Shown here: piece after piece, positions 7,606-62,388 of the stretch
Position numbering within the stretch: the first letter of the stretch is position 1
Layout of the letters: every line of letters starts with the position of its first letter
Source of the DNA: Escherichia phage kaaroe
Strand: one strand, 5' to 3'
Sequence record: MN850574.1
DNA length: 64,000 bases
Program-made: the position numbers and the translations under genes
The notes under the pieces: model-generated
Seen by the model: the letters and a program-made list of their open reading frames with translations, nothing else
What the model was told of the DNA's origin: nothing
Database searches by the model: none

Positions 7606-7612
7606 AAATCTG

Positions 7613-7641: not shown

Positions 7642-7671
7642 GTCCCCATCGAAAACAAAAGGTTGACTTAT

Positions 7672-15458: not shown

Positions 15459-15701
15459 ATGGTTAAAGTTAATGTTATCGAAGTTGCACTGTACGACGCT
15501 GGGATCTTCCTGAATGAAAAAGAAGCTGCCGTCCTCGACGAACTGAAAACTGTTTTTGTTCCTGTAGTAGAAGACGTAGAAGCAATCAAAATCGCTTCTC
15601 GTAAACTGTCCCGCGAAGCATTCGACATGATTGATCCGGTTTTCAAAGTTATGCACGAATGCGCGGTTATGATGACCGAAGAAGAAGCGAAAAATTTCTA
15701 A
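15459..15701 (+). CDS. hypothetical protein
   Basis: ATG after conserved leader. Confidence 0.55.
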   Translation: MVKVNVIEVALYDAGIFLNEKEAAVLDELKTVFVPVVEDVEAIKIASRKLSREAFDMIDPVFKVMHECAVMMTEEEAKNF

Positions 15702-15708
15702 AAACTAG

Positions 15709-15737
15709 TTGACGTAAAGATAAGGGAGTAGTAACAT
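15709..15737 (+). promoter_or_regulatory. sigma70-type early promoter with dyad over -10
   Basis: TTGACG-17-TAACAT; inverted repeat GGGAGTA/TACTCCC brackets the -10; ATG 15767. Confidence 0.55.
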
Positions 15738-15766
15738 ACTCCCATACCAAACGAAAGGAGAATCAC

Positions 15767-15976
15767 ATGAAATCTATCGAGCAAGTAGTAACAGAGTTTA
15801 TGAGCTACGAAGGAAACCGCATCTTTGGACGTTCTCAAGTTCGCGAGATCGTAGAAGAAGTTGCTGGAGAGTTTGCGGAATCTGGTCACATTATCACGCA
15901 AGAACGTAAAGAAGAAGCAGTAAACCAGATCATGGCTATACAGAAAATGCGTATTAATGCACGAGCGGGGGCTTAA
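15767..15976 (+). CDS. hypothetical protein
   Basis: ATG after AGGAGAATCA RBS. Confidence 0.55.
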   Translation: MKSIEQVVTEFMSYEGNRIFGRSQVREIVEEVAGEFAESGHIITQERKEEAVNQIMAIQKMRINARAGA

Positions 15977-15977
15977 A

Positions 15978-16277
15978 ATGAATTTTACCGATAAAGTTTT
16001 TGAAATTAGTCGCACTACTTCAATTAAAAATCTTAGGGCGGCTGCATTTATGGTTGATAAAGGGTTTAATATGGCATCGTCTGACGGTGTACCGTACTTT
16101 GCACCAACTTTCGTTGGCTGGATGACTGATCGTAAACGTGATTACACTAAAGCATATCCGCATATGGTACTTAGTAAAATTATCACTAAAGTGTATCCAC
16201 ATATGGTACTTAATGACGTTATCACGGACCACGATCACTTTACAAACTTTATTGTTTCCGGTGAATGGCGAAAATAA
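15978..16277 (+). CDS. hypothetical protein with internal direct repeat
   Basis: AYPHMVLSKIITKVYPHMVLNDVIT repeat; ATG 15978. Confidence 0.45.
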   Translation: MNFTDKVFEISRTTSIKNLRAAAFMVDKGFNMASSDGVPYFAPTFVGWMTDRKRDYTKAYPHMVLSKIITKVYPHMVLNDVITDHDHFTNFIVSGEWRK

Positions 16278-16288
16278 TTTAAAACTAG

Positions 16289-16317
16289 TTGACACCGGAT
16301 TAAGGGAGTAGTAACAT
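16289..16317 (+). promoter_or_regulatory. sigma70-type early promoter with dyad over -10
   Basis: TTGACA-17-TAACAT, GGGAGTA/TACTCCC dyad, ATG 16352. Confidence 0.55.
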
Positions 16318-16351
16318 ACTCCCATCAAGACAAAACACTGAGGAATATATT

Positions 16352-17110
16352 ATGAAAAACATTATCGCTGCTATCGTTCTTTCTGCTACTGCTTTCGGTG
16401 CTAACGCTGCGTCCTTTGATTGCGCTAAAGCTACTACCAAATCAGAGAAGTTTATTTGTGCTAATGAGTCTATCTCCGCACTGGACTCTAAACTTCATGA
16501 GGTGTATGTTAAGGCTGTTAAGATTGATCCGTCTCTGAAACAAGAGCAACGAAACTGGAATAAAACTGTTCGTGATACAATGATCAATATAGGGCAGATT
16601 CAGCCACTGGAGGCTGTATATAACGCTCAAATCCAAAACTTGATGAATGTATTACCTAAAGAAGAAACCGCGTCAGAAAGCGATTCAGAGACTTCTGCGA
16701 AGGTTGAAGAAGAACAACCGAAACAGGAAGCAAAAGTGGTAGAAGAACCGAAGGTCGAAACTTTTACCTATCAATGTACCGTTCGTTATGAGTGGAGTAT
16801 GAAAGATGGAATTTCCACAAAAATTAAAGAGGCTCCACTGTATGCAAAATATGGAAACCAGCCAGGGGATCTTAAAGTAACCATTAAAAATGGGAAGATG
16901 GTTGATTTTGTATACACTGATGAATACAACGTACACAAAGCAAACGTACAAGAAACCGTTATGACTAAAGGCGGGTTTTATAAGAATGTTGGCAAGAAAG
17001 ATCTATATGAATACTCCGTTTTCGAACCAAACGACGGAACTATTCGATTTGAAAAACGTCATCCTACATTCGGTGGAGCAATTGATGTAGATCAATACGT
17101 TTGCAAGTAA
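16352..17110 (+). CDS. secreted protein with LprI/DUF1311-like N-terminal domain
   Basis: Signal peptide MKNIIAAIVLSATAFGANA; FDCAKA..FICANE..LD..L..VY...Q..W...RD pattern. Confidence 0.6.
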   Translation: MKNIIAAIVLSATAFGANAASFDCAKATTKSEKFICANESISALDSKLHEVYVKAVKIDPSLKQEQRNWNKTVRDTMINIGQIQPLEAVYNAQIQNLMNVLPKEETASESDSETSAKVEEEQPKQEAKVVEEPKVETFTYQCTVRYEWSMKDGISTKIKEAPLYAKYGNQPGDLKVTIKNGKMVDFVYTDEYNVHKANVQETVMTKGGFYKNVGKKDLYEYSVFEPNDGTIRFEKRHPTFGGAIDVDQYVCK

Positions 17111-37842: not shown

Positions 37843-40086
37843 ATGATTAAAAATGTTGTTAAGTCTTCCGGTCTGACTGTTCCTTTTGAAAAAGAAAAAG
37901 TAATGAAAATTCTGGAAGCGGCAGCCGAAGGTCATAACGTTGATCCATATGAATTGTTTGATATGGTTGAACCACTTCTGACAGAAGGTATGTCTACCAA
38001 CGATATCCAGAAAGTATTGATTAAGGTCGCAGCAGATAACATTACTGTAGAAACACCCGATTATCAATATGTAGCAAGTAACCTTGCAATGTTCGCGCTT
38101 CGCAAATCAGTATACGGTCAATTCCAACCGATTGATTTTTACAGCCATATTGAGCGTAATATTGCAACCGGAAAATATGATCGCGAAATTCTGCAAAAGT
38201 ATTCCCGTGAAGAAGTGGAATATCTGGAGAAATTCATCGACCATAAACTTGATTTTAAAATGACCTATGCTGGTGCGATGCAGTTAAAAGAGAAATATCT
38301 TGTTCAAGATCGCAGCACTAAGAAAATCATCGAAACACCGCAATTTGCGTATATGCTGATCGGTATGTGCTTGCATCAAGAAGAGACAGAAAATCGACTT
38401 GAACATGTGATTGATTTTTATAATGCGGTTGCGAATAAGCAAATCTCTCTGCCTACTCCGATTATGGCAGGTGTGCGTACCCCAACACGCCAATTTAGTT
38501 CGTGTGTGGTGATTGAAAGTGATGACTCATTGCAGGGTATTAATGAAACCGCAAATGCAATCATCAAGTATATTAGCAAGCGTGCTGGTATCGGTATCAA
38601 CGCTGGCATGATTCGCGCGGAAGGATCTAAGATCGGGCATGGTGAAGTTCGTCATACTGGAGTTATCCCATTCTGGAAACATTTTCAGACTGCCGTTAAG
38701 TCATGCTCACAAGGCGGTATTCGTGGCGGGGCAGCGACACTCTATTACCCAATGTGGCATTTAGAGTTTGAAAGTCTGATTGTGTTAAAGAACAATAAGG
38801 GCGTGGAAGATAACCGCATTCGCCATCTTGACTACGGCGTACAGATTAATAACCTGATGGTAGAGCGATTCCTTAAACGGGATTACATTACTCTGTTTAG
38901 TCCAGATGTTGCGGGTGGCTTGTTGTGGGATCTGTACTTCCGAGACGAGGAAGGTTTCCGCCAACTTTACGAAAAACTGGAAAAAGATCCGAGTGTTCGT
39001 AAAACTCGTGTTAAAGCCGAAGACCTGTTTTTAGCGGTGGCAATTGAACGTTTTAACACTGGTCGAATCTATCCAACGTTCACAGACAACATGAACAATC
39101 ACGGGGCGTTTATTCGTAATGTAGCACCGATTAAACAATCTAACCTGTGTTGTGAAATTGCTCTGCCTACTAAACCGATGGGTCGTGATGATTCAGAGAT
39201 CAGCCTATGTACTTTGGCAGCATATGTTTTAGGAAACTTTGATATCGAAAATATGGAAGAAGTAGAACGCATTGCTATGGTTATGGTGCGTGCACTTGAC
39301 AACCTGTTAGATTATCAGGATTATCCTGTAGAGCAAGCTATGACAGCCAAAAAACGTCGCTCTCTGGGTGTTGGGGTGACTAACTTTGCATCGTATCTCG
39401 CGGATAATTTCTTCACATATGAAGACGCTAACGAGTTTACGCATAAAACGTTTGAACGCTTGCAATATGCTCTGATTAAGGCTAGTGTGCAACTGGCTAA
39501 AGAGAAGGGTGCTTGCGAACTGATGCACGAAACCCGCTATGGTCGCGGTGAACTGCCTATCGACTGGTACAAAAAGACAGTAGATGAACTGGTTGATCCG
39601 GTGTATGAGATGGATTGGGAAGAACTGCGCGAAGACCTGAAAAAATATGGCATTCGTAATAGTACGCTTTCGGCTCTGATGCCTTGTGAGTCGTCTTCTC
39701 AGGTATCTAACAGCACAAACGGTATTGAACCACCTCGCGGGATTGTATCGGTTAAAGGATCGAAAGAAGGGCAATTTAATCAGGTTATTCCGAACGTAGA
39801 GAATAATGCTGATGTTATTGACCTGCTTTGGACACTGATCAAGAAAGGTAACAAGCCCTATCTGACACTGGCAGCGATCATGCAGAAGTTTGTAGATCAG
39901 GCGATTAGTTCCAATACATCCTATGATCCAAGCACTTATAAGACTGGTAAAGTCGATATTGCTGATGTGTTAGATGATATGTTGTTCGCTCAACATTACG
40001 GTCTGAAAACCCTGTATTATGCGAACGTTCGCGACGGTGCAGATGGTACGGAAGACGCTAGCGAGTGCTCATCTTGCAAGCTGTAA
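37843..40086 (+). CDS. nrdA: ribonucleotide reductase large subunit (class Ia NrdA)
   Basis: ATP-cone N-terminus, SSCVVIE-like, ESSSQVSNSTNGIEP and other NrdA motifs; 747 aa. Confidence 0.95.
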   Translation: MIKNVVKSSGLTVPFEKEKVMKILEAAAEGHNVDPYELFDMVEPLLTEGMSTNDIQKVLIKVAADNITVETPDYQYVASNLAMFALRKSVYGQFQPIDFYSHIERNIATGKYDREILQKYSREEVEYLEKFIDHKLDFKMTYAGAMQLKEKYLVQDRSTKKIIETPQFAYMLIGMCLHQEETENRLEHVIDFYNAVANKQISLPTPIMAGVRTPTRQFSSCVVIESDDSLQGINETANAIIKYISKRAGIGINAGMIRAEGSKIGHGEVRHTGVIPFWKHFQTAVKSCSQGGIRGGAATLYYPMWHLEFESLIVLKNNKGVEDNRIRHLDYGVQINNLMVERFLKRDYITLFSPDVAGGLLWDLYFRDEEGFRQLYEKLEKDPSVRKTRVKAEDLFLAVAIERFNTGRIYPTFTDNMNNHGAFIRNVAPIKQSNLCCEIALPTKPMGRDDSEISLCTLAAYVLGNFDIENMEEVERIAMVMVRALDNLLDYQDYPVEQAMTAKKRRSLGVGVTNFASYLADNFFTYEDANEFTHKTFERLQYALIKASVQLAKEKGACELMHETRYGRGELPIDWYKKTVDELVDPVYEMDWEELREDLKKYGIRNSTLSALMPCESSSQVSNSTNGIEPPRGIVSVKGSKEGQFNQVIPNVENNADVIDLLWTLIKKGNKPYLTLAAIMQKFVDQAISSNTSYDPSTYKTGKVDIADVLDDMLFAQHYGLKTLYYANVRDGADGTEDASECSSCKL

Positions 40087-40094
40087 AATAAGTG

Positions 40095-40123
40095 TTGACG
40101 CGGGGAGAAATCCCCGCTATAAT
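40095..40123 (+). promoter_or_regulatory. sigma70-type early promoter with palindromic spacer
   Basis: TTGACG-17-TATAAT; spacer is CGGGGAGAAATCCCCG. Confidence 0.6.
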
Positions 40124-40154
40124 ACAACCATCAAAAACAAGTGAGGATTTTATT

Positions 40155-40323
40155 ATGACCAAATTAAAATGTGTTGCTGTAGATTTTTGAACTAGCTGAT
40201 AGCTTTGTTGTTGGTGATGAATATGATGCTCAACATGATGGGACTTGCTACTACGTCGAGGATGAATATGGTGTAGAATGGGCGATTCTTCCTGATGATA
40301 AATGTTTTGAGGTTGTCGGATAA
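40155..40323 (+). CDS. small ORF interrupted by +1 frame change at TTT-TGA (programmed frameshift or homopolymer error)
   Basis: MTKLKCVAVDF stops at UGA after UUU; +1 frame continues ELADSFVVGDEYDAQHDGTCYYVEDEYGVEWAILPDDKCFEVVG with no start codon of its own. Confidence 0.4.
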
Positions 40324-42412: not shown

Positions 42413-42631
42413 ATGGAAACAGAAGAACAAGTCATTGCATATTTTCATCGTAAAAAGATGAAACTTAGAATTGAAAAGCAGTACATCAATCACTACATTG
42501 ACCGAGTTCACTTAACAAGTACACCTTACCTATTCCGGTTGATAAACCCTAGAAAACGGTGGGAGAAGTTGGATAGAAACACAAAAATAATTGATAAGCT
42601 CACCCAGTGGTGGAATGAATACAACAAGTAA
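42413..42631 (+). CDS. hypothetical protein
   Basis: ATG after conserved leader. Confidence 0.55.
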   Translation: METEEQVIAYFHRKKMKLRIEKQYINHYIDRVHLTSTPYLFRLINPRKRWEKLDRNTKIIDKLTQWWNEYNK

Positions 42632-42638
42632 AAAGTAG

Positions 42639-42667
42639 TTGACACTGAATAACGGGGGTAGTAAGAT
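42639..42667 (+). promoter_or_regulatory. sigma70-type early promoter with dyad over -10
   Basis: TTGACA-17-TAAGAT; GGGGGTA/TACTCCC dyad; ATG 42701. Confidence 0.55.
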
Positions 42668-42700
42668 ACTCCCATCGAAACGAAACAAAGGAGAATCAAA

Positions 42701-42919
42701 ATGAAATTTACTTGCACCGACTCTATCAGCAAACACTTTGTAGTAGGCGAAGTATACGAATCTACTACCATTCGCCAGCGTGACCTGATGGGTCGCCTTT
42801 ACAATCAGCCAGTATTCATTATTGGCGAAGAATTGTTCTACATTGAAAACCGTCCGTGGGTTGCTTTCAATAAACGAGGACGCAAGGTAGCAAAATTCGA
42901 ACTTGTCATTAAAAAGTAG
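42701..42919 (+). CDS. hypothetical protein
   Basis: AGGAGAATCAAA-ATG cassette. Confidence 0.55.
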   Translation: MKFTCTDSISKHFVVGEVYESTTIRQRDLMGRLYNQPVFIIGEELFYIENRPWVAFNKRGRKVAKFELVIKK

Positions 42920-42948
42920 TTGACAGCATGAAACGGGGGTAGTAATAT
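42920..42948 (+). promoter_or_regulatory. sigma70-type early promoter with dyad over -10
   Basis: TTGACA-17-TAATAT; GGGGGTA/TACCCCC dyad; ATG 42987. Confidence 0.55.
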
Positions 42949-42986
42949 ACCCCCATCGAAACGAAATACACTTTAAGGAGAATCAA

Positions 42987-43136
42987 ATGAACAACTTTGA
43001 CGCGGTACTGAAAATGGCAATCGAAACTTACGCGGAGATCTCCGGCGAGAAAGTAGAGGACATTATCAAAGAATGTCAGAACTTTGAAAGCCAGACAGCC
43101 AAGAATGTTCAAATGTTGATGTTTGCGGTTGCATAA
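42987..43136 (+). CDS. hypothetical small protein (49 aa)
   Basis: AGGAGAATCAA-ATG cassette; manually translated. Confidence 0.45.
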   Translation: MNNFDAVLKMAIETYAEISGEKVEDIIKECQNFESQTAKNVQMLMFAVA

Positions 43137-43144
43137 AAAAGCAG

Positions 43145-43173
43145 TTGACAGCATATCACGGGAGTAGTAAGAT
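43145..43173 (+). promoter_or_regulatory. sigma70-type early promoter with dyad over -10
   Basis: TTGACA-17-TAAGAT; GGGAGTA/TACTCCC dyad; ATG 43207. Confidence 0.55.
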
Positions 43174-43206
43174 ACTCCCATACCAAAACAACTAAGGAGT
43201 ATCAAG

Positions 43207-43605
43207 ATGATTAAATTTCAAACTCGCAAAGATGTTCTGGACTTCGTTAAAGTTTTCGGTTACGCTGCATTGCAACATGCAATGGACAAAATGACCATCT
43301 CCCCAGATCAGACTATGCTGATCCGTATGGTTAAAGCAACCGCCTACAAAAACGACATTACCCTCTCAGAAATCAACGACGGTAATACTGTTCGCGAGGT
43401 AATTGTTTCTTTCGAATCACCGAAAATTGGCGGTTTTCATACCACGATGTTAGGTGAAATCACTGTCACTGTATACGGGCAAGGTGGCGGAGTGTTTACC
43501 GTCAAAGAAGCAATGGAAAATGGAACGCTGAACAAAGAAAAACTGGAATTTGTCCTGAAAATCATCAAGGAGCGTAACGAAGCTCGCGATATTCTGGAAA
43601 GTTAA
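43207..43605 (+). CDS. hypothetical protein
   Basis: AAGGAGTATCAAG-ATG cassette; followed by terminator. Confidence 0.55.
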   Translation: MIKFQTRKDVLDFVKVFGYAALQHAMDKMTISPDQTMLIRMVKATAYKNDITLSEINDGNTVREVIVSFESPKIGGFHTTMLGEITVTVYGQGGGVFTVKEAMENGTLNKEKLEFVLKIIKERNEARDILES

Positions 43606-50989: not shown

Positions 50990-51002
50990 TTCAAAAAGTT
51001 GT

Positions 51003-51031
51003 TGACAGGGGATCGGTGATCCCCTATACTA
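51003..51031 (+). promoter_or_regulatory. early promoter cassette with palindromic spacer
   Basis: TTGACA-GGGGATCGGTGATCCCC-TATACT, conserved leader, ATG 51076. Confidence 0.65.
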
Positions 51032-51075
51032 CACACATCAAAACGAAACACACTTTCTTAAACGGAGAATCAAAA

Positions 51076-51387
51076 ATGAAATACATCGTAACGCTGCCAA
51101 TGATTGACTTCGACGGAACCATGAACACCCAGAAGACCATGAGCGCGGAGAACCAACTGAAAAACGCTACCCTGATTCGTGAAGTTCGCAAGGCACTGGC
51201 AAAAGAATTTAACACCAAAATTCATTCTGTAACTGGCGAACGTTTCGCGGATCATCTTGATATCAACATCAAACCAGTGCGCAACGGTGTTATCTCTGTA
51301 ACAACCAGCCGCCCACATGCTGACGCTGATAATCTGACCGCTCGCGCAGAAGATGTAATTATGACCGTTATCATGGAAAAACTTTAA
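51076..51387 (+). CDS. hypothetical protein
   Basis: GGAGAATCAAAA-ATG cassette. Confidence 0.55.
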   Translation: MKYIVTLPMIDFDGTMNTQKTMSAENQLKNATLIREVRKALAKEFNTKIHSVTGERFADHLDINIKPVRNGVISVTTSRPHADADNLTARAEDVIMTVIMEKL

Positions 51388-51395
51388 AAAAGTTG

Positions 51396-51424
51396 TTGAC
51401 AGGGGATCACCGATCCCCTATACT
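51396..51424 (+). promoter_or_regulatory. early promoter cassette with palindromic spacer
   Basis: TTGACA-GGGGATCACCGATCCCC-TATACT, ATG 51459. Confidence 0.65.
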
Positions 51425-51458
51425 ACACACATACCGAAACGAACTAGGAGAATCAATT

Positions 51459-51638
51459 ATGAACTTCAACGAAATCATCGCTAAAATCCGCTACAACGAA
51501 GAAACCATTGAACTGATGCAAAACAATATCACCAATGGCTATATGATTGCAGCGTCACAAGAAATCATTGATTTGACGGTAGCAGAAAATGCTCAGTTGA
51601 AACATCAACTTTCAACGGCTGGCGTGATTGTTATGTAA
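51459..51638 (+). CDS. hypothetical small protein (59 aa)
   Basis: Conserved leader/RBS then ATG 51459. Confidence 0.5.
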   Translation: MNFNEIIAKIRYNEETIELMQNNITNGYMIAASQEIIDLTVAENAQLKHQLSTAGVIVM

Positions 51639-51655
51639 TAAAGAGAGGTGACTAA

Positions 51656-51958
51656 ATGGCAAAAGTTCAGGTAGGTGAGGTCTTCAAAATGGAAGACCAC
51701 ACCGTGGAAGAGATGAAAGGCGCAGTATTGAAAGTAATTAATTCAATGTGGCGTAGTGTGCTTTACATCAACTTTATCGACGGTGATGTGTGGTGGGCTA
51801 GCGATAGCGATAAATGGGATATCAAGTTCTACAAAGGTCATACTCACTGGTTAGGATCAGAGGATGTTGTAGAAGTTCTTGCGGTTGATGTTATGCCAGG
51901 AGAGATCGAGAATCTTAGCGGAACAGCAAAAGAAGCATTGACACGCCATTTTGCGTAA
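51656..51958 (+). CDS. hypothetical protein, member of HxHW...AVDV paralog family
   Basis: GHTHWLGSEDVVEVLAVDV motif shared with four other ORFs (53007, 53709, 54034, 54731). Confidence 0.55.
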   Translation: MAKVQVGEVFKMEDHTVEEMKGAVLKVINSMWRSVLYINFIDGDVWWASDSDKWDIKFYKGHTHWLGSEDVVEVLAVDVMPGEIENLSGTAKEALTRHFA

Positions 51959-52014
51959 TGTAGTATAACAATAATCGGGAGGGTAATACTCTCCCACAAA
52001 TTGAGGATAATATT

Positions 52015-52206
52015 ATGTGTGGTCTTAAAATGGTTGCTGAATATAAGCGAACTGGTAATGTTATGATGTATCGACGCAATACCAACGAAGAATGGAAACC
52101 TTCAAACCGCATTAAATCCATCCAGACGTTTATGAATAACATAAAAGAAAACCTTTTCGTTAAGCGTGCTGGTGTTGGACATTGGGAAGTTTACGAAGCT
52201 GTATAA
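52015..52206 (+). CDS. hypothetical protein
   Basis: TTGAGGATAATATT-ATG cassette; upstream dyad GGGAGGGTAATACTCTCCC. Confidence 0.5.
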   Translation: MCGLKMVAEYKRTGNVMMYRRNTNEEWKPSNRIKSIQTFMNNIKENLFVKRAGVGHWEVYEAV

Positions 52207-52222
52207 TTTTGAGGAAAATACT

Positions 52223-52516
52223 ATGGAACATACTAATTTGTTTGTAGCCGAACCTTTCGTTGAAGGCAATAAAAATCTGGCTAATACCGTTATTCTTTAT
52301 GAAGATTGGATCTTTTACATCGACGAGCATTTAGATGTATTTTGTCGCACAGATAAAAGTGACCAATTTCCAATTGAAAAAAATCGAACATCAAATCATT
52401 GGTACGGCGGGAATGACGAAACCGACCTAGCTATTGTTCTAGAATCAGGCGTAGAATCTGAACATGCCAATGAAGTGGCAGACAAATTTATGAAATACGC
52501 ATATAAAGCATTATAA
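52223..52516 (+). CDS. hypothetical protein
   Basis: SD GAGGAAAATACT then ATG 52223. Confidence 0.5.
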   Translation: MEHTNLFVAEPFVEGNKNLANTVILYEDWIFYIDEHLDVFCRTDKSDQFPIEKNRTSNHWYGGNDETDLAIVLESGVESEHANEVADKFMKYAYKAL

Positions 52517-52521
52517 AGTTG

Positions 52522-52550
52522 TTGACAGGGGATCGGTGATCCCCTATAAT
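52522..52550 (+). promoter_or_regulatory. early promoter cassette with palindromic spacer
   Basis: TTGACA-GGGGATCGGTGATCCCC-TATAAT, ATG 52583. Confidence 0.65.
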
Positions 52551-52582
52551 GCACACATACCAACGAGATAGGAGAATCAAAA

Positions 52583-52750
52583 ATGTTCCAGACTAAAGCA
52601 GAATGCGAAGCATACATTGTAGCAAACCACGGTGAAGACTACCTGAAATTCGATATCGTAGTAGCACAGAAGATCACCGGAATGGTTGCAAAATATCTGG
52701 GTGTTAAAGAAGGTTACTATCCGAGCAACGCACCGGAAATCAACAAATAA
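52583..52750 (+). CDS. hypothetical small protein (55 aa), near-identical paralog of 55863-56030
   Basis: MFQTKAECEAYIVANHGEDYLKFDIVVAQKITGMVAKYLGVKEGYYPSNAPEINK versus MFETKAACEAYIIETHGEDYLKFDIVVAQKIVGMVAKYLGVKEGYYPSNAPEINK. Confidence 0.55.
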   Translation: MFQTKAECEAYIVANHGEDYLKFDIVVAQKITGMVAKYLGVKEGYYPSNAPEINK

Positions 52751-52753
52751 TAG

Positions 52754-52782
52754 TTGACAATGATTAAAGGGAGTAGTAAGAT
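52754..52782 (+). promoter_or_regulatory. early promoter cassette
   Basis: TTGACA-17-TAAGAT with GGGAGTA/ TACTC remnant dyad, ATG 52815. Confidence 0.55.
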
Positions 52783-52814
52783 ACTCACATCAAGACAACA
52801 AACGGAGAATCAAA

Positions 52815-52994
52815 ATGAAAGCTATCGAAGTTCAGAAGTACATGGAACTCATCATTGAAGGTAAAGCACATACAGTATTGACTACCCACGTAGGATATGA
52901 TAAAAATGTGCATATGCTGGTAGACAATATCGGCTGGATGAAGTTTAACCCTAACGAGAACGTACAAGCTCAAGAAATGACCATCCCTTTCTAA
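52815..52994 (+). CDS. hypothetical small protein (59 aa)
   Basis: GGAGAATCAAA-ATG cassette. Confidence 0.5.
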   Translation: MKAIEVQKYMELIIEGKAHTVLTTHVGYDKNVHMLVDNIGWMKFNPNENVQAQEMTIPF

Positions 52995-53006
52995 GAGGAA
53001 TATATT

Positions 53007-53285
53007 ATGATGCGAATTACTGCAACGCTGGATAAGACACACAAAGAAAGATTTTTCGGTATGATCTTAAAAACGCCGATTTTCGATAATTACCTTTATG
53101 TTGACTATGAAGGTCACATTAGCTATAAATGTAAAAATGATATTCGTGATTCCTTTGGTGATAAATCACAAGCTGATATTCATGACCACTGGTGGAACCA
53201 TGACGAACCTTTACGAGTTATCGCAGTTGATGTAAAAACAACAAAAGAAGCTGATAAGGTAGTGAATGATTATGAGCAAATTTAA
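53007..53285 (+). CDS. hypothetical protein, HxHW...AVDV paralog family
   Basis: IHDHWWNHDEPLRVIAVDV motif. Confidence 0.55.
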   Translation: MMRITATLDKTHKERFFGMILKTPIFDNYLYVDYEGHISYKCKNDIRDSFGDKSQADIHDHWWNHDEPLRVIAVDVKTTKEADKVVNDYEQI

Positions 53286-53529
53286 AGAATACAAAGCATA
53301 TCAACAGATCCTGCGAGTATACGCACCAGAGTTCGCCGAAAAGATGATGGAAGATGCATCAAAATGCCCGTCCTTTTCTGGAAACAAAAACCATTATTCT
53401 ACTCGTATTGTATCATGGAAAGAAACATGTTACACTCAACAGTGGATAAACGTTTTCTCAAAAACAATTGGTTGGAATGGTGTTAATTATGGGTATTCAG
53501 AGTCAATTCAAAGATTATCGAGTGTATAA
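53266..53529 (+). CDS. hypothetical protein (paralog pair with 53489-53707)
   Basis: FKEYKAY...AEKMMEDASKCPSF...NK..IV.W shared with next ORF. Confidence 0.5.
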   Translation: MIMSKFKEYKAYQQILRVYAPEFAEKMMEDASKCPSFSGNKNHYSTRIVSWKETCYTQQWINVFSKTIGWNGVNYGYSESIQRLSSV

Positions 53530-53707
53530 AGAAATCTGTGCTGTATTTGATGAGAAAACAGCAGATAAAATGATGAAAGAAGCGTCACAATGTTCATCTT
53601 TTGTTGATAACAAAGATTTAAGAGTAAATGAGATCGTGTGCTGGAGCGACACGAAACATGAAATTGTATGGCGTACCGTGTACTATAGCCGCGACCGAGG
53701 ATTATAA
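53489..53707 (+). CDS. hypothetical protein (paralog pair with 53266-53529)
   Basis: FKDYRVY...ADKMMKEASQCSSF; ATG 53489 inferred from paralog alignment. Confidence 0.45.
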   Translation: MGIQSQFKDYRVYKEICAVFDEKTADKMMKEASQCSSFVDNKDLRVNEIVCWSDTKHEIVWRTVYYSRDRGL

Positions 53708-53708
53708 A

Positions 53709-54029
53709 ATGAAATTAACTAAAAAGATTTTCCCAGAATTGCGTAACTGTCTGTTACTGGTTACTGAATATAAACCTTATACGATCTATTTGTACGTTGA
53801 TGAAAATCTGAAAATCCGTTACTATGATTATACGTCTCCAGTGATGAAATCATTTGCTCACTCGATCGCAAATAACTGTATGAATCACAATCATTGGGTA
53901 TCAGAAACGGATGACGATGCGTCAGAAGTTGTAGTGGTTGCATGGAATCTATCACCAGCGGAAGCAGATCAAGCACGCATTAAGCATTATGCGAAAAACA
54001 ATTGGTTTGACCTTATAAATGAGGACTAA
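53709..54029 (+). CDS. hypothetical protein, HxHW...AVDV paralog family
   Basis: MNHNHWVSETDDDASEVVVVAWNL motif variant. Confidence 0.5.
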   Translation: MKLTKKIFPELRNCLLLVTEYKPYTIYLYVDENLKIRYYDYTSPVMKSFAHSIANNCMNHNHWVSETDDDASEVVVVAWNLSPAEADQARIKHYAKNNWFDLINED

Positions 54030-54033
54030 TATT

Positions 54034-54312
54034 ATGTTCAAAGTAGGTGATAAGTTTATTCTTAGTCGTGATATTCTCCCTAATCTGAAAGGTTGTATCA
54101 TCAATCCTAGTAAAAATTCATGGTTTTATCTGTTTATCGATGATGATCTAAATGTACGCGCCGAATATAAAGAAGGTCTTCGTACTGGTCTTGGTTTCTT
54201 TCACGATCATGACCATAGCCATTGGCTAAACGGTGGATTCGAAGCAACGGTGATAGCGGTTGATGTGGATTACACAAACATCATAGAAAAATATCAAAAA
54301 ATTATTTTATAA
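54034..54312 (+). CDS. hypothetical protein, HxHW...AVDV paralog family
   Basis: HDHDHSHWLNGGFEATVIAVDV motif. Confidence 0.55.
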   Translation: MFKVGDKFILSRDILPNLKGCIINPSKNSWFYLFIDDDLNVRAEYKEGLRTGLGFFHDHDHSHWLNGGFEATVIAVDVDYTNIIEKYQKIIL

Positions 54313-54318
54313 AAAGTG

Positions 54319-54347
54319 TTGACATAAGATCGGGTGTATAGCATAAT
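54319..54347 (+). promoter_or_regulatory. early promoter cassette with dyad over -10
   Basis: TTGACA-17-CATAAT; perfect inverted repeat GGGTGTAT/ATACACCC brackets -10; ATG 54394. Confidence 0.6.
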
Positions 54348-54393
54348 ACACCCATCGAAACGAGATACACTTTCTAACTAGGAGAATCAAATT

Positions 54394-54681
54394 ATGGCAT
54401 ACATTACTATCACTCTGAAAGTTAACAAATTTGCTCACGCTGCACACGAAACCGATAATGCAATCCGTAACAACAAGTTCGCACGTCTGGTACGCGATGC
54501 AGTAGCTAAAGAGTTCAACTTCAAATTTGCAGATGGTAAAGTTATCACTAAATGGACTCATGACGGCGAAACTAAAGTAGAACTTGCTGACAACTTCGCA
54601 AATCAGGAATATGCACACCGTCGCATTAATGAAATCATCAGCGATGAACTCTACTACGGTGTACAGGAAGGACTGTTTTAA
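54394..54681 (+). CDS. hypothetical protein
   Basis: Conserved leader/RBS, followed by terminator. Confidence 0.55.
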   Translation: MAYITITLKVNKFAHAAHETDNAIRNNKFARLVRDAVAKEFNFKFADGKVITKWTHDGETKVELADNFANQEYAHRRINEIISDELYYGVQEGLF

Positions 54682-54684
54682 TAT

Positions 54685-54708
54685 ACGGGGCGTTAAGCCC
54701 CCTTTTCA
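54685..54708 (+). terminator. rho-independent terminator
   Basis: GGGGCGTTAAGCCCC hairpin followed by CTTTTCATC; same hairpin recurs at 58887. Confidence 0.65.
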
Positions 54709-54730
54709 TCCAACTATTGAGGATAATACT

Positions 54731-55039
54731 ATGAAAGATAATATCTTTGAATTTACCCGCGAAAATCTCCCAATGTTCCGAAAGTCTCTGCTTAAACTAG
54801 AGAACAGCAATTACGATGTATATTTTTACATCACCGAAGATCTAGAGATCCTTTACGCTGATTACCCAGGTCCGATCCGTACCTTCGAAGAAGCATCGCA
54901 GTATAAAAATGTTCACGGTCATGAGCACTGGTTACGAGAAAACCCAGGTCGCAAGAAAGCACGCGTTAAAGTGATTGCGATTGACGTAACACCAGCATAC
55001 GCCGACCGGATTGCACTGAATGATTATTTGTCTAAATGA
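54731..55039 (+). CDS. hypothetical protein, HxHW...AVDV paralog family
   Basis: HGHEHWLRENPGRKKARVKVIAIDV motif. Confidence 0.55.
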   Translation: MKDNIFEFTRENLPMFRKSLLKLENSNYDVYFYITEDLEILYADYPGPIRTFEEASQYKNVHGHEHWLRENPGRKKARVKVIAIDVTPAYADRIALNDYLSK

Positions 55040-55047
55040 TTTTATTA

Positions 55048-55075
55048 GCCGACCTTAGCGTCGGCTTTTTTATTG
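55048..55075 (+). terminator. rho-independent terminator
   Basis: AGCCGACC-TTAG-CGTCGGCT followed by TTTTTTATT. Confidence 0.75.
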
Positions 55076-55095
55076 CATAAAATTAAAAAAAAGAA

Positions 55096-55124
55096 TTGAC
55101 ACCAGATCACGCCTATAGCATAAT
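55096..55124 (+). promoter_or_regulatory. early promoter cassette
   Basis: TTGACA-17-CATAAT, leader ACACCCATCGAAACGAG.., ATG 55165. Confidence 0.6.
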
Positions 55125-55164
55125 ACACCCATCGAAACGAGATACCACTTAGGAGAATCAAACA

Positions 55165-55434
55165 ATGGCACTGACTAAAACCACTACCAACTTTGCAAAA
55201 CGTCACGGCTTCGACATTGAAATCAATAGCTTTAACGATTACACTCTTCTGTGTGTATATGAAATCGAAAATGATTGCGAGTGGATGTTCAGCTATCGCG
55301 TAAACGAAGACGGATCTTTCACTTGGAACGGAAATATCTATCTTGCACAGGAAGTAAAAGAAGAACTTCCGGCGAATATCAAAGATGAGAAACATTTACG
55401 TCAAGTTTTAAAATTTATTTCTGAAAATATCTAA
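55165..55434 (+). CDS. hypothetical protein
   Basis: AGGAGAATCAAACA-ATG cassette. Confidence 0.55.
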   Translation: MALTKTTTNFAKRHGFDIEINSFNDYTLLCVYEIENDCEWMFSYRVNEDGSFTWNGNIYLAQEVKEELPANIKDEKHLRQVLKFISENI

Positions 55435-55442
55435 AAAAGTTG

Positions 55443-55471
55443 TTGACACCAAAGTAAGAACATAGCATAAT
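55443..55471 (+). promoter_or_regulatory. early promoter cassette
   Basis: TTGACA-17-CATAAT, ATG 55505. Confidence 0.6.
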
Positions 55472-55504
55472 ACACCCATACCGAAACGAACTGGAGAATC
55501 AAAA

Positions 55505-55786
55505 ATGAAATTCATCAAAGCAACCGAAATCCTGAAAAACAAAGAAGCATACATCGGAAACATCGTTGGTATGAACATTCGCGGCGCTGGTAGCCAGTGG
55601 ACCAAACTGGTTGATGTTAAAGCTAAAGGCGATAAAATTGAGTTCACTGTAAAAATGCTTACTCATAACGCACATATGGGTATCAAGACAAAAACGATGG
55701 CAGCAGATAAAAGCATTAACTATCAGGGTCTGGGTGATTGGCTGAACTGGTGCAAAATGCACAATATCGAAACTAATCACGAATAA
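55505..55786 (+). CDS. hypothetical protein
   Basis: Conserved leader/RBS. Confidence 0.55.
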   Translation: MKFIKATEILKNKEAYIGNIVGMNIRGAGSQWTKLVDVKAKGDKIEFTVKMLTHNAHMGIKTKTMAADKSINYQGLGDWLNWCKMHNIETNHE

Positions 55787-55800
55787 TTTTAAAAAAGTTG

Positions 55801-55829
55801 TTGACGGGGATCGGGAGATCCCCTATAAT
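55801..55829 (+). promoter_or_regulatory. early promoter cassette with palindromic spacer
   Basis: TTGACG-GGGATCGGGAGATCCCC-TATAAT, ATG 55863. Confidence 0.65.
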
Positions 55830-55862
55830 ACACACATAACGAAACGAAATAGGAGAATCAAA

Positions 55863-56030
55863 ATGTTCGAGACTAAAGCAGCATGTGAAGCATATATCAT
55901 TGAAACCCACGGCGAAGATTATCTGAAATTTGACATTGTAGTAGCACAGAAGATTGTAGGGATGGTTGCAAAATATCTGGGTGTTAAAGAAGGTTACTAT
56001 CCGAGCAACGCACCAGAAATTAACAAATAA
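55863..56030 (+). CDS. hypothetical small protein (55 aa), near-identical paralog of 52583-52750
   Basis: See 52583 entry; about 90 percent identical at protein level by eye. Confidence 0.55.
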   Translation: MFETKAACEAYIIETHGEDYLKFDIVVAQKIVGMVAKYLGVKEGYYPSNAPEINK

Positions 56031-56044
56031 TTTTATAAAAAGTA

Positions 56045-56073
56045 TTGACAGGGGAGGATAACTCCCCTACAAT
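56045..56073 (+). promoter_or_regulatory. early promoter cassette with palindromic spacer (operon 56114-58346)
   Basis: TTGACA-GGGGAGGATAACTCCCC-TACAAT, ATG 56114; no further promoter until 58355. Confidence 0.65.
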
Positions 56074-56113
56074 ACAACCATCAAGACGAGATACCACTTA
56101 GGAGAATCAAACA

Positions 56114-56365
56114 ATGGCTAACATCGAAACCGCAAAGAAAATCGCTAAAGACCTGAACGTTAAAGGCTTCCGTAAACTGAAATTACAGCGTGTACGCTAC
56201 ACCATCGGCAAACAGTGCTCTTTCATGAGCGAAGAAGTTGCTAACAGCCTCATTGATAACCTGATTGCGGCTGGCTGGGAAGTTGCGGATCTGAAAACTT
56301 GCCGCGAACTGGCTAACAAAGGTCTTTTAGATTCTGTTACTATCAAACCAATGGGGGCAGCGTGA
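56114..56365 (+). CDS. hypothetical protein (operon gene 1)
   Basis: Conserved leader/RBS. Confidence 0.55.
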   Translation: MANIETAKKIAKDLNVKGFRKLKLQRVRYTIGKQCSFMSEEVANSLIDNLIAAGWEVADLKTCRELANKGLLDSVTIKPMGAA

Positions 56366-56607
56366 AAAGAAAATTAATTAAACGCAATAAGGAATTTCTT
56401 AATAACTGCATTAAGGCCGCTAATGGTTGGCCTTTGTGCCTCTTCCTTTATGATTGGTATTCTAAACAATCAGTTGAGGAAACACGACACTATAAGAAGA
56501 TCAGAAAAGAATCATATACAAAACAAGGCCGCATTAACGGACTTTACTTAATGTGGCACGGCAAAGAACCTTCTAAAATCTGCGTTGGATTAAAGGGGCG
56601 TATATGA
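56362..56607 (+). CDS. hypothetical protein (operon gene 2, GTG start)
   Basis: GTGA overlap with upstream stop; ORF track 56362-56607. Confidence 0.45.
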   Translation: MKRKLIKRNKEFLNNCIKAANGWPLCLFLYDWYSKQSVEETRHYKKIRKESYTKQGRINGLYLMWHGKEPSKICVGLKGRI

Positions 56608-57320
56608 AACAAAAATTAATATTCTGTAACTTTGACGGATCGGGGATAATGGGGCTAGAATGGGCTAAAGCAGGTCATAAGGTGATCTGCTTTAATGCTG
56701 ACGATGGCGACCACGGCACATACAAAAAGTATAATACCAGATTTGAACACCCAAACATTACCTATGTAAACACATGGATTGATTTGAACTGGCTAGAAAG
56801 AGCAATGGACCTTGAATGGGGGAAACCGGATATTATCTTTGCATTCCCACCGTGCACCAATTTAGCTGTTAGTGGCGCTGCACACTTTGAACGAAAGAAA
56901 CGAGAACAAGGACCATTGATTCAAGTTCATGATGTAAGGGCAGCTAAAATAACCGCTTATTTGGGTGAATGGCTAGGAGTTCCCTACATGATAGAGAATC
57001 CTGTAAGCGTTATCTCTAGCATGTGGCGTAAGCCTGATTACATGTTCCACCCGTGGGAATATGGCGGTTATTTGCCGGAAGATGATAAACATCCTACTTT
57101 TCCTGAGTATATCGCCGCCCGTGATATGTACCCGAAAAAGACTTGCTTATGGACCGGACAAGGCTTTATAATGCCAGAAAAGAAACCGTTGCAGATTAAT
57201 AAAGGGTACAGTAAACAGCATTCTAAGCTAGGCGGGAAAGGAACGAAAACAAAGACTATCAGGTCACTTACCCCGCGAGGATTCGCAAAGGCAGTATTTG
57301 AAGCAAATAAGGATCTATGA
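56604..57320 (+). CDS. C5-cytosine-methyltransferase-like catalytic core protein (operon gene 3)
   Basis: Motif-I-like FDGSGIMG, motif-IV-like FPPCTNLAVSG, motif-VI-like IENPVS; 238 aa, no obvious target-recognition domain. Confidence 0.45.
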   Translation: MKQKLIFCNFDGSGIMGLEWAKAGHKVICFNADDGDHGTYKKYNTRFEHPNITYVNTWIDLNWLERAMDLEWGKPDIIFAFPPCTNLAVSGAAHFERKKREQGPLIQVHDVRAAKITAYLGEWLGVPYMIENPVSVISSMWRKPDYMFHPWEYGGYLPEDDKHPTFPEYIAARDMYPKKTCLWTGQGFIMPEKKPLQINKGYSKQHSKLGGKGTKTKTIRSLTPRGFAKAVFEANKDL

Positions 57321-57655
57321 TGAGATTGTTTAAGTATTCGCTAACGTCAAATTACGATAAACAAGGTCATTGCATCCGTTGCCCTGATTGTCATAGCCAT
57401 AACATCGAAAGCAAGATCACCGATCATATTGATGGACTTTGGTCGCCAGCAAGTGAAATAGAATACTATTGCGCTGATTGTGGAATTGTAGTAGCATATT
57501 GGGCATACGGATCATATGATCCATACTTCCAGATGGGAGAACGTTCAATCCCTGCGCTTATCTGGAGAATTAAGAACAATATCCGCTATTCATGGGATGA
57601 GTTCTTAAAAGATATTGATTTACGTGATGATCCATTCAGGAGAACTATATTATGA
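57317..57655 (+). CDS. zinc-ribbon protein (operon gene 4)
   Basis: CIRCPDCHSH ... CADCG; ATGA overlap with upstream stop. Confidence 0.5.
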   Translation: MMRLFKYSLTSNYDKQGHCIRCPDCHSHNIESKITDHIDGLWSPASEIEYYCADCGIVVAYWAYGSYDPYFQMGERSIPALIWRIKNNIRYSWDEFLKDIDLRDDPFRRTIL

Positions 57656-57831
57656 TAACACCACAACTACACGGTAAAGAGATTTGCGATCTTACTTGGG
57701 AAGAGTTGGTCATGTATCGCGACACCTACAAATGGTTTGAATCCATGAAAGAATTTGTAGCAGCAGTACGAGAAGAAATGAGCATTCGCCAGTATGCGGA
57801 CGCATATATTGAAAAGGTAAGCACACTATGA
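57652..57831 (+). CDS. hypothetical small protein (59 aa, operon gene 5)
   Basis: ATGA overlaps at both ends; manually translated. Confidence 0.4.
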   Translation: MITPQLHGKEICDLTWEELVMYRDTYKWFESMKEFVAAVREEMSIRQYADAYIEKVSTL

Positions 57832-58346
57832 ACCGTTTAACGCCTAAACGCCGTTACTATACCAATACTAAAAACTTTGTCATCTCTGTTTATGAGGCGT
57901 GGTTAGAAGATGGCTTTATCAACATGAACCCAGATTATCAGCGTCCTTTGGTATGGGACACCGAAAACAAACGTATGTTTATCGAAAACCTGATTAATGA
58001 TTTTCCGGTTGGTGCTATCGCAATGGCTAAGATTGATGATGGCTCTCGCTATGAGATCGAAATCGTGGACGGTAAACAGCGTTTAAACGCAATATTCTCC
58101 TTCATGAAGGATGAGTTTAGCATTGCTGGTAATGATGATTCTATGTTGTATTACAGTGATTTTACGCCAGCAGAAAAGCGACGTTTCCGAAATCTCGGAC
58201 TACCCGCGATCATGATGGAAGAGAGCACACGAGAAGACCGATTAGAGTATTTCTACAAAACAAACTTTTTCGGTGTGCCTCAATCGGAAGAACATCGCCA
58301 GCATGTGATTGCCCTATTGCAAGATGAGCAATTAAAAAATAACTAA
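57828..58346 (+). CDS. DUF262/ParB-like nuclease-domain protein (operon gene 6)
   Basis: NPDYQRPLVW and IVDGKQRLNAIF (DGQQR-type) motifs typical of DUF262, the GmrSD N-terminal domain. Confidence 0.6.
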   Translation: MNRLTPKRRYYTNTKNFVISVYEAWLEDGFINMNPDYQRPLVWDTENKRMFIENLINDFPVGAIAMAKIDDGSRYEIEIVDGKQRLNAIFSFMKDEFSIAGNDDSMLYYSDFTPAEKRRFRNLGLPAIMMEESTREDRLEYFYKTNFFGVPQSEEHRQHVIALLQDEQLKNN

Positions 58347-58354
58347 AAAAGTTG

Positions 58355-58383
58355 TTGACAGGGGATCATCGATCCCCTATAAT
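58355..58383 (+). promoter_or_regulatory. early promoter cassette with palindromic spacer
   Basis: TTGACA-GGGGATCATCGATCCCC-TATAAT, ATG 58418. Confidence 0.65.
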
Positions 58384-58417
58384 ACACACATACCGAAACG
58401 AACTAGGAGAATCAAAC

Positions 58418-58597
58418 ATGAAACACTTAACCATCGAATCGGCAATCATCGCAATCGCTAAAGTTCAAGCGGCTTATAATTGCACTGACATTGAAGCCAT
58501 TTCAAAAATGCAAGCAGAAGCAGCAAAAGCGGGTGACGAGAAATCTTTAGATGTTCTCTGCGAAATCAAAGCAGAATTGATTTCAAAAATGTTCTAA
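58418..58597 (+). CDS. hypothetical small protein (59 aa)
   Basis: Conserved leader/RBS. Confidence 0.5.
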   Translation: MKHLTIESAIIAIAKVQAAYNCTDIEAISKMQAEAAKAGDEKSLDVLCEIKAELISKMF

Positions 58598-58603
58598 AAG
58601 TTG

Positions 58604-58632
58604 TTGACATAACAGAGGGTGTATATCACAAT
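58604..58632 (+). promoter_or_regulatory. early promoter cassette with dyad over -10
   Basis: TTGACA-17-CACAAT; inverted repeat GGGTGTAT/ATACACCC; ATG 58669. Confidence 0.6.
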
Positions 58633-58668
58633 ACACCCATACCGAAACGAACTACTAAGGAGTATCAA

Positions 58669-58881
58669 ATGGCTAACATCGAAATCATCATTACCGACGT
58701 AACTTATGACCGCATTAACGAAATCGGTACTGCATTACTGGAAGATGGAACAACTCGTACCATCAACTACGCAGAATACGTTGAAATGCGCGGTTGTATT
58801 AAACGAGTAGGAAAATATATCCTGATTGAAAAAGACTATTCAGGATACACCTTAGAGCAATTGCTCGATGGTGCATTATAA
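58669..58881 (+). CDS. hypothetical protein
   Basis: AAGGAGTATCAA-ATG cassette. Confidence 0.55.
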   Translation: MANIEIIITDVTYDRINEIGTALLEDGTTRTINYAEYVEMRGCIKRVGKYILIEKDYSGYTLEQLLDGAL

Positions 58882-62385: not shown

Positions 62386-62388
62386 AAA

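Follow-up and report, generated by a model that had tools for sequence, protein, structure and literature searches.

What purpose is served by short GC-rich dyads placed inside early promoters? The question is raised by a stretch of 64,000 nucleotides (nt) of Escherichia phage kaaroe (sequence record MN850574.1), referred to here in its full length as the window. For positions 51003-58632 (the range), an earlier note made from the sequence had described dyads of two structural classes, in which the 17-bp spacer of a promoter is itself a palindrome or an inverted repeat brackets the −10 box. It had proposed that such dyads bind a dimeric repressor or activator, fold in nascent RNA or in single-stranded DNA (ssDNA), or couple the promoter to Dam methylation. 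Our analysis shows that the dyads are real and far above chance. The cassettes that carry them are, close to certainly, the promoter-early stem-loops (PeSLs) of RB49/phi1-type T4-like coliphages, an element already published and characterised at this very locus; there is no new element here. What we add to the published PeSL is the lack of a U-tract after the hairpin, its mutual exclusion with canonical upstream terminators, and a tolerance of G·T but not of A·C pairs on the sense strand.

The cassettes and their identity

The window belongs to a Krischvirus, that is, an RB49/phi1-like T4-type coliphage. Between 50.9 and 58.7 kb it is 93.5-97.5% identical to Krischvirus genomes (RB49, phi1, GEC-3S, JSE, kvi and others), its + strand corresponding to the − strand of the related records, and its gene order is collinear with phi1 ORF212 to ORF185 (ORF, open reading frame), and also with RB49 and GEC-3S. 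In this region a cassette of ~90 bp is present in 11 copies between 50990 and 58671. A profile made from these copies recovers 24 cassettes in the window, all on the + strand; the layout is, in order, AAAAAGTTG-TTGACA-17 bp-TATAAT-ACACAC-ATACCGAAACGAAC...AGGAGAATCAAA-ATG. At the 5′ end of each cassette the stop codon of the upstream small ORF lies within an A-rich (AT-rich) tract (for example ...TAAAAAAGTTG-TTGACA), the upstream ORF ending 5-20 nt 5′ of the −35 box; at the 3′ end, AGGAGAATCAAA-ATG supplies the Shine-Dalgarno sequence and the start of the next ORF. The ORFs that follow encode products of 55-103 residues, mostly without Pfam matches. All 11 copies of the range have a 17-bp spacer and agree with the hexamer consensus at 10-12 of 12 positions (nine of them at 11 or more), and the annotation of GEC-3S places promoters at the same 11 sites. 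In the phage collection the cassette family was found only in Krischvirus, where 58 records contain it at 7-12 places each. No Rfam family covers the cassettes, the sole match being a chance small nucleolar RNA (E 0.31).

Perfect stems of 7-8 bp are carried by eight of the 11 range cassettes, here called by the first position of their −35 box; one dyad is degraded and two cassettes (55096 and 55443) have none. Over the window the figures are 13 perfect, three imperfect and eight without a dyad. The resulting map bears out the two classes: the hairpin fills the spacer in six range cassettes (51002, 51396, 52522, 55801, 56045 and 58355), and an 8-bp hairpin surrounds the −10 box in two (54319 and 58604), with a degraded version of the −10-bracketing type at 52754. 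The sequences quoted in the earlier note all occur in the window, GGGGATCGGTGATCCCC at 51008-51024 and 52528-52544, GGGGATCATCGATCCCC at 58361-58377, GGGGAGGATAACTCCCC at 56051-56067, and GGGTGTAT-agCATAAT-ACACCC at 54332-54353 and again at 58617-58638. Two of the quoted sequences fall outside the range to which they had been assigned, namely CGGGGAGAAATCCCCG (40101-40116) and the perfect GGGAGTA-gTAACAT-ACTCCC (15724-15743 and 16304-16323). The cassettes are as follows, those of the range first.

50990..51078, + strand: cassette 5′ of the ORF210 homologue, PeSL211/210 ortholog; −35 51002-51007, −10 TATACT 51025-51030, ATG 51076; spacer hairpin AGGGGATC-ggt-GATCCCCT at 51007-51025 (+)
51383..51461, + strand: PeSL cassette; −35 51396-51401, −10 51419-51424, ATG 51459; spacer hairpin AGGGGATC-acc-GATCCCCT at 51401-51419 (+)
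52511..52585, + strand: PeSL206/205 ortholog; −35 52522-52527, spacer hairpin 52527-52545, −10 TATAAT 52545-52550, ATG 52583
52744..52817, + strand: PeSL cassette with degraded −10-bracketing dyad; −35 52754-52759, −10 TAAGAT 52777-52782, ATG 52815; GGGAGTA (52769-52775) faces TACTCAC (52782-52788) with a G/A mismatch, where relatives have a perfect TACTCCC
54306..54396, + strand: PeSL cassette; −35 54319-54324, ATG 54394; hairpin GGGTGTAT-agcata-ATACACCC at 54332-54353, which takes in most of the −10 (CATAAT 54342-54347) and stops at −1
55047..55167, + strand: canonical intrinsic terminator AGCCGAC-cttagc-GTCGGCT with T-run (hairpin 55047-55066, +), then a dyad-less PeSL-type promoter; −35 55096-55101, −10 55119-55124, ATG 55165
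55430..55507, + strand: PeSL-type promoter with neither dyad nor upstream terminator; −35 55443-55448, −10 55466-55471, ATG 55505
55787..55865, + strand: PeSL cassette at the junction of the ORF193 and ORF191 homologues, arranged as in phi1 (ORF192 absent); −35 TTGACG 55801-55806, hairpin GGGGATC-ggga-GATCCCC 55806-55823, −10 55824-55829, ATG 55863
56031..56116, + strand: PeSL cassette; −35 56045-56050, −10 TACAAT 56068-56073, ATG 56114; spacer hairpin AGGGGAG-gataa-CTCCCCT at 56050-56068 (+)
58344..58420, + strand: PeSL cassette; −35 58355-58360, −10 TATAAT 58378-58383, ATG 58418; spacer hairpin AGGGGATC-atc-GATCCCCT at 58360-58378 (+)
58591..58671, + strand: PeSL cassette; −35 58604-58609, −10 CACAAT 58627-58632, ATG 58669; hairpin GGGTGTAT-atcaca-ATACACCC around the −10 at 58617-58638 (+)
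7602..7660, + strand: PeSL cassette with GGGGATAT-atcata-ATGTCCCC at 7626-7647, including a sense-strand T·G wobble
15696..16362, + strand: two PeSL cassettes with GGGAGTA-gtaaca-TACTCCC around the −10, at 15724-15743 and 16304-16323
40082..40167, + strand: PeSL cassette; −35 TTGACG 40095-40100, spacer hairpin GCGGGGA-gaaa-TCCCCGC 40100-40117
42630..43212, + strand: three PeSL cassettes with −10-bracketing hairpins, GGGGGTA/TACTCCC at 42654-42673 (sense-strand G·T wobble), GGGGGTA/TACCCCC at 42935-42954 and GGGAGTA/TACTCCC at 43160-43179

Identification as PeSLs agrees with the published description in every respect that we compared. Arbiol et al. 2010 reported ~50 PeSLs per genome in RB49 and phi1, with the same two hairpin positions as the two classes of the window (PMC2839356), and Comeau et al. 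2014 summarised the RB49/phi1 element as Gn-loop-Cn with TTGACA-N17-TATAAT (PMC4122927). Cassettes 51002 and 52522 are the orthologs of the very elements assayed in lacZ fusions, in which the stem-loop of PeSL211/210 lowered downstream expression as strongly as rrnB T1 and PeSL206/205 was a very strong promoter of ~13,000 Miller units (PMC2839356). Cassette 55801 is the single PeSL found in phi1 at the 193/191 junction, where RB49 has ORF192. Cassettes 51002 and 51396 flank the homologue of ORFan210, which forms minicircles (PMC2839356). The genus, the hyperplastic region (phi1 ORF212 to ORF185) and the composite layout are thus those of the RB49/phi1 PeSLs. The differences are those of another isolate, ~93.5% identical to phi1 over the region, with allelic changes in loops and stems and nothing essential.

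Pairing in the stems

When the 32-nt core around a perfect stem is shuffled with its dinucleotides preserved, a stem as good is reached in 0-1.3% of cases. The RNA folding energies of the perfect stems run from −11.9 to −14.9 kcal/mol (z −2.7 to −5.2). Folded as DNA, either strand reaches −6.9 to −8.0 kcal/mol (z −3 to −4), compared with ~0 for the two dyad-less copies of the range. Together, the promoter cores (864 bp, 1.35% of the window) contain 13 of the ~27 GC-rich perfect hairpins with a stem of at least 7 bp found in the 64 kb; block-shuffled windows yield ~3.4 listed hairpins in total.

To compare relatives, the window was pooled with 20 related loci, from GEC-3S, phi1, ECD7, RB49, JSE, JK32, phiS, FL38, Brandy, G2494, 011D4 and several metagenome and IMG/VR contigs, giving 200 cassettes with 96 distinct promoter cores. 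The related sequence was drawn mainly from GenBank phage records; a loose-pattern search of IMG/VR returned mostly chance matches in unrelated contigs, a protein-anchored scan gave two Krischvirus loci and one metagenome scan gave six. A perfect stem of at least 7 bp is present in 53 of the 96 cores and a perfect 6-bp stem in seven; eight have one internal G·T, two have one other mismatch, and 26 have a weak stem or none. The arms are GGGGATC, GGGGAG, GCGGGGA and AGGGGA in the spacer class, and GGGTGTAT, GGGGATAT, GGGAGTA and GGGGGTA in the −10 class. At least six unrelated sequences (GGGGATC, GGGGAG, GCGGGGA, GGGTGTAT, GGGGATAT and GGGAGTA/GGGGGTA) pair in three registers around loops of 3-6 nt that vary freely (ggt, acc, atc, aca, gcc, ggc, ggga, gcga, cacgt, gataa, gttaaa, acacc, gaaa). 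Over 21 genomes and contigs the stems are preserved while the loops drift.

Aligned for covariation, the symmetry is kept and some pairs are compensated. At the orthologous locus of cassette 54319, the window has GGGTGTAT/ATACACCC and phi1, GEC-3S and RB49 have GGGGATAT/ATATCCCC, so that two adjacent pairs differ and both are compensated. Changes on both sides affect three of eight pairs in class 2a and one of seven in class 2b, and G·U intermediates are present. From these comparisons, it is structure and not sequence that is conserved in the stems. Of the two arms of the −10 class, the 3′ one (ATACNCCC) hardly changes, dyad-less copies included, and the differences lie in the 5′ arm. This suggests that a C-rich discriminator was there first and that the unconstrained spacer was adapted to pair with it.

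The strands are not equivalent. Single internal pairs of the transition type that depart from Watson-Crick pairing number eight G·T and no A·C on the sense strand of the 96 cores, one near-terminal A·C pair occurring in ECD7. Wobble copies fold better as RNA of the + strand than of the − strand (−12.4 versus −8.5 kcal/mol at 7626-7647, and −11.0 versus −7.1 kcal/mol in another). This bias argues for a sense strand that acts as a single strand and against a site for a protein on duplex DNA.

The loops ggt (51016-51018) and acc (51410-51412) of the GGGGATC hairpin are exact reverse complements, a hint that the palindrome was inverted. We rejected this as proof of hairpin inversion, as the single-step intermediates ggc and gcc exist in relatives and three substitutions suffice.

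Hairpins, terminators and a candidate mechanism

The hairpins start ~17-30 nt after the upstream stop codon; those of the spacer class end at the first base of the −10 box, and those that bracket it end at −1. In this numbering the −10 box occupies −12 to −7, the next six bases (ACACAC or ACNCCC) form the discriminator, and transcription would start (+1) at the A of ATACCG or ATCGAA. The 5′ ends were reportedly mapped by Desplats et al. in 2002. Our placement of +1 derives from the spacing to the −10 box and from Nolan et al. 2006, who stated that their predicted consensus for RB49 is consistent with mapped 5′ ends and noted a preference for C from −3 to −1 (PMC1524935). Since the hairpins end at or before −1, they are absent from the transcript of their own promoter, and hence could fold only in ssDNA or in RNA that reads through from the cassette upstream. 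Folding in RNA or ssDNA, as had been proposed, therefore fits, but not in the nascent RNA of the promoter concerned.

In the window, four of the eight dyad-less cassettes (14691, 33943, 42360 and 55096) are preceded by a hairpin and T-run ending 18-38 nt before the −35 box, and none of the 16 dyad-bearing cassettes has such a canonical terminator upstream (Fisher test on these counts, ~0.007). In the pooled set the proportions are 16 of 28 dyad-less versus eight of 95 dyad-bearing, a contrast inflated by orthology. Internal hairpin and upstream terminator thus seem to be alternatives, as the published terminator/attenuator idea predicts.

We consider an RNA-level insulator the probable, though by no means assured, role of the hairpin. 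Each cassette combines, in ~90 bp, the stop codon of the upstream ORFan in an A-rich, UP-like tract, a near-consensus sigma-70 early promoter, a conserved 5′ untranslated region, and the Shine-Dalgarno sequence and ATG of the following ORFan. The 7-8 bp G(n)-loop-C(n) hairpin takes up promoter bases that are not recognised by sigma-70, either the 17-bp spacer or a portion of the spacer paired with the C-rich discriminator. In read-through RNA arriving from the upstream cassette this hairpin would fold and mark the 3′ boundary of the upstream transcript, by attenuating read-through and/or by blocking trimming by 3′-exonucleases. Neighbouring single-gene cassettes would thereby be insulated, and the promoter would then start the next message. 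Two signals, a sigma-70 promoter and a hairpin bounding the upstream transcript, would be overlaid in ~30 bp. The cassettes, being near-identical repeats of ~90 bp, would also double as sites of homologous exchange at which ORFans are shuffled, a repeated regulatory cassette serving as a portable linker for accessory genes. Four observations favour a strand-specific structural insulator: unrelated stems in three registers, the few compensatory changes, G·T without internal A·C, and the exclusion with terminators.

Several points weigh against this insulator role. The published terminator assay is a plasmid lacZ fusion of a single element (PMC2839356). Four dyad-less loci (1532, 15396, 35234 and 55443) have neither hairpin nor terminator. 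Over the 15 nt after the hairpins the T-tract score is 0.1-1.55, against 0.78 ± 0.72 at random positions and 2.0-4.35 for canonical terminators of the same window, and the 8 nt after the stem hold 1-3 T at PeSL hairpins versus 5-7 at canonical terminators; after the −10-bracketing hairpins, AUACCGAAAC comes next. A pattern scan for terminators on the + strand finds those at 54687, 55047 and 58887 and no PeSL hairpin. Because there is no U-tract and no + strand call, classical intrinsic termination is not expected, least of all for the −10-bracketing class. The covariation, although real, comprises few independent events, and its score is equalled in five of 500 shuffles for class 2a and 67 of 500 for class 2b, which is modest. 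Finally, the G·T excess consists mostly of A to G changes on the sense strand, three of them being the same change in GGGGATC, and mutation bias or gene conversion could contribute to it.

We accordingly rejected a classical intrinsic terminator, the U-rich tract being absent after the stem. A terminator role on the minus strand, where the scan calls three dyads, was also rejected: there are no − strand genes here and the T-run begins ~10 nt after the stem. Clearly, the phage has ordinary terminators yet uses something different at the PeSL hairpins. The hairpin may attenuate weakly in the spacer class, where the −10 box (UAUAAU) would serve as a poor U-tract; it may shield the upstream message, once processed, at its 3′ end; or its effect may depend jointly on RNA polymerase bound at the strong promoter. 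That it acts at the RNA level, and by which biochemical step (termination versus 3′-end protection), we infer. Our three additions narrow the possible ways in which a hairpin devoid of a U-tract could lower expression, and bear on its nesting within the promoter in RB49-type phages.

The leader conserved among the cassettes (51037-51075, and the corresponding 5′ untranslated region in every other cassette) closes with AGGAGAATCAAA, a GGAG and then an A-rich tract. The T4 endoribonuclease RegB cleaves early mRNAs at sites of this kind (PMC3014915). Should RegB be active here, cleavage would leave the upstream hairpin as the 3′-proximal structure of the message.

Other explanations and related systems

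The hairpins could instead work at the DNA level, forming in ssDNA during recombination-dependent replication, stalling or redirecting synthesis and making the PeSL a hot spot of ORFan exchange through minicircles, with any effect on transcription secondary. Arbiol et al. observed that sequencing polymerases get past the stem-loops only when betaine is added, and that one RB49 minicircle has its crossover inside the loop (PMC2839356); the folding of −7 to −8 kcal/mol holds for both DNA strands. ORF presence and absence between relatives falls exactly between cassettes (for example, RB49 ORF192 versus the single cassette 55801), extra ORFs between cassettes being found also in JSE, FL38 and G2494, and whole cassette types appear exchanged between orthologous loci. 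However, T4-type homologous recombination needs no hairpin where a near-identical repeat of ~90 bp is available, conservation is just as high in the dyad-less cassettes, the phi1 crossover lies outside the stem-loop (PMC2839356), and a purely DNA-level role predicts neither the preference for G·T over A·C on the sense strand nor the mutual exclusion with upstream RNA terminators. We regard this explanation as unlikely, if worth keeping in mind. It is rather improbable that the dyads are functionless passengers, descended from a handful of ancestral palindromic spacers that recombination and gene conversion spread together with the cassettes. The many near-identical paralogues (five GGGGATC copies lie within 7.6 kb) and the weak covariation statistics would be accounted for in this way. 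On the other hand, copying of one ancestor does not explain the recurrence of independent stem sequences and registers, and the conservation of stems in 21 genomes and contigs while loops drift, the compensated changes at an orthologous locus, the distribution complementary to canonical terminators and the published functional assay (PMC2839356) all speak for a function. We give a similarly small chance to the proposal that the hairpins, lacking a U-tract, are not terminators but structure-specific sites of regulation or recombination, recognised as hairpins or cruciforms by a phage protein that shuts off the near-consensus early promoters in this lineage lacking MotA, or by a structure-specific nuclease that launches PeSL minicircles.

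A control of their own promoter, through binding of a dimeric or structure-specific protein of phage or host or through extrusion by supercoiling, as an early shut-off in a group that lacks MotA, is still less probable. Its appeal is that the dyads sit inside the promoter in fixed register with the −35 or −10 box and that all stems share a polarity of G-run then C-run. Yet the stems have no common half-site, with their unrelated arms, three registers and varying loop lengths, G·T wobbles break the dyad symmetry in duplex DNA, and one third of the cassettes are dyad-less, promoter-like and of the same early class; these results do not support the dimeric repressor or activator site once proposed. 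Arms of 7-8 bp are, moreover, short for cruciform extrusion. Early-promoter shut-off in T4-type phages has been described as incompletely understood (PMC3014915) and no motA ortholog was found in RB49 (PMC1524935), but in T4/PST and nt-1 the stem-loops stand upstream of the promoter, not inside it (PMC4122927). Lastly, GATC in the spacer might couple the promoter to Dam methylation, as had been proposed; SeqA could, for instance, bind the hemimethylated DNA that replication leaves. A Dam methylase is encoded by RB49, so GATC sites would be methylated; GATC occurs in the spacer of nine of the 24 cassettes, in five of them twice, the 864 bp of promoter core hold 14 GATC versus ~4.9 expected from the window average, and several −10-bracketing and dyad-less copies have GATC at the spacer position that it occupies in the palindromic class. 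Nevertheless, GATC is restricted to certain subfamilies, with none in the GGGAGTA/GGGGGTA, GGGGAG and GCGGGGA hairpins, one GATC in a palindrome arm makes the second automatic, no −35 or −10 hexamer of the 24 cassettes includes it, the copies are paralogous and their counts hence not independent, and the window as a whole has 359 GATC for 340.6 expected (ratio 1.05). The coupling is thus highly improbable.

Compared with Rho-independent terminators, the PeSL hairpins are likewise GC-rich, 7-8 bp long and placed ~17-30 nt past a stop codon, and they share the niche of the canonical terminators found upstream of dyad-less cassettes. In contrast to them, they lack a U-tract, overlap an active promoter and escape the pattern scan. 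The PeSLs of T4/PST and KVP40/nt-1 also combine an early promoter, a stem-loop and a Shine-Dalgarno sequence, repeated in hyperplastic regions and flanking variable ORFs. There, however, the stem-loop lies just upstream of a promoter of weaker consensus (TTTACW or TTGYVH), whereas here it is nested inside (PMC4122927). The morons of lambdoid phages are, like the units studied here, autonomous single genes bounded by their own promoter and stop signal, but they have no conserved flanking repeat, and their promoter and terminator are separate elements. In phage N4, a short GC-rich hairpin with a small loop is itself the early promoter, used by the virion RNA polymerase. The resemblance lies in the presence of such a hairpin at an early promoter; here the site is a textbook sigma-70 promoter and the hairpin would be dispensable for its identity. 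N4-like hairpin promoters were rejected on this ground, the promoters being plain sigma-70 sites.

Some features of the surrounding sequence deserve mention. In the window, GGCC is found 26 times for 71.6 expected from trinucleotides (ratio 0.36), with AGCT at 0.66 and GCGC at 0.73. The GGCC deficit looks like restriction-site avoidance in a phage with unmodified cytosine. The 238-residue product of 56604-57320 is annotated as Dcm/DNA methyltransferase in relatives and has no Pfam match at E < 0.01, and 57828-58346 encodes a 172-residue product with a GmrSD_N (DUF262) domain (E 5e-20).

Paralogous ORFans are present in the PeSL array: the products of 52583-52750 and 55863-56030 share 89% identity over 55 residues, those at 53272 and 53489 share 39%, and five proteins of ~100 residues (starts 51656, 53007, 53709, 54034 and 54731; span 51656-55039) form a distant family at 25-32% identity. 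The ORFs after cassettes 56045 and 58604 (56114-56129 and 58669-58684) share their start, ATGGCTAACATCGAAA (MANIE...), so that the repeat extends 16 nt into coding sequence, which fits recombination joints inside ORF starts. An identical terminator hairpin, GGGGCGTTAAGCCCC with a T-run, is found twice, at 54687-54701 and 58888-58902, after ORFs ending at 54681 and 58881; terminators, like promoters, seem to be copied as modules. A perfect hairpin of 11 bp (AAAGGCGGGGA-taa-TCCCCGCCTTT) occupies 62386-62410, between convergent ORFs that end at 62385 (+) and 62417 (−), and is probably a bidirectional terminator.

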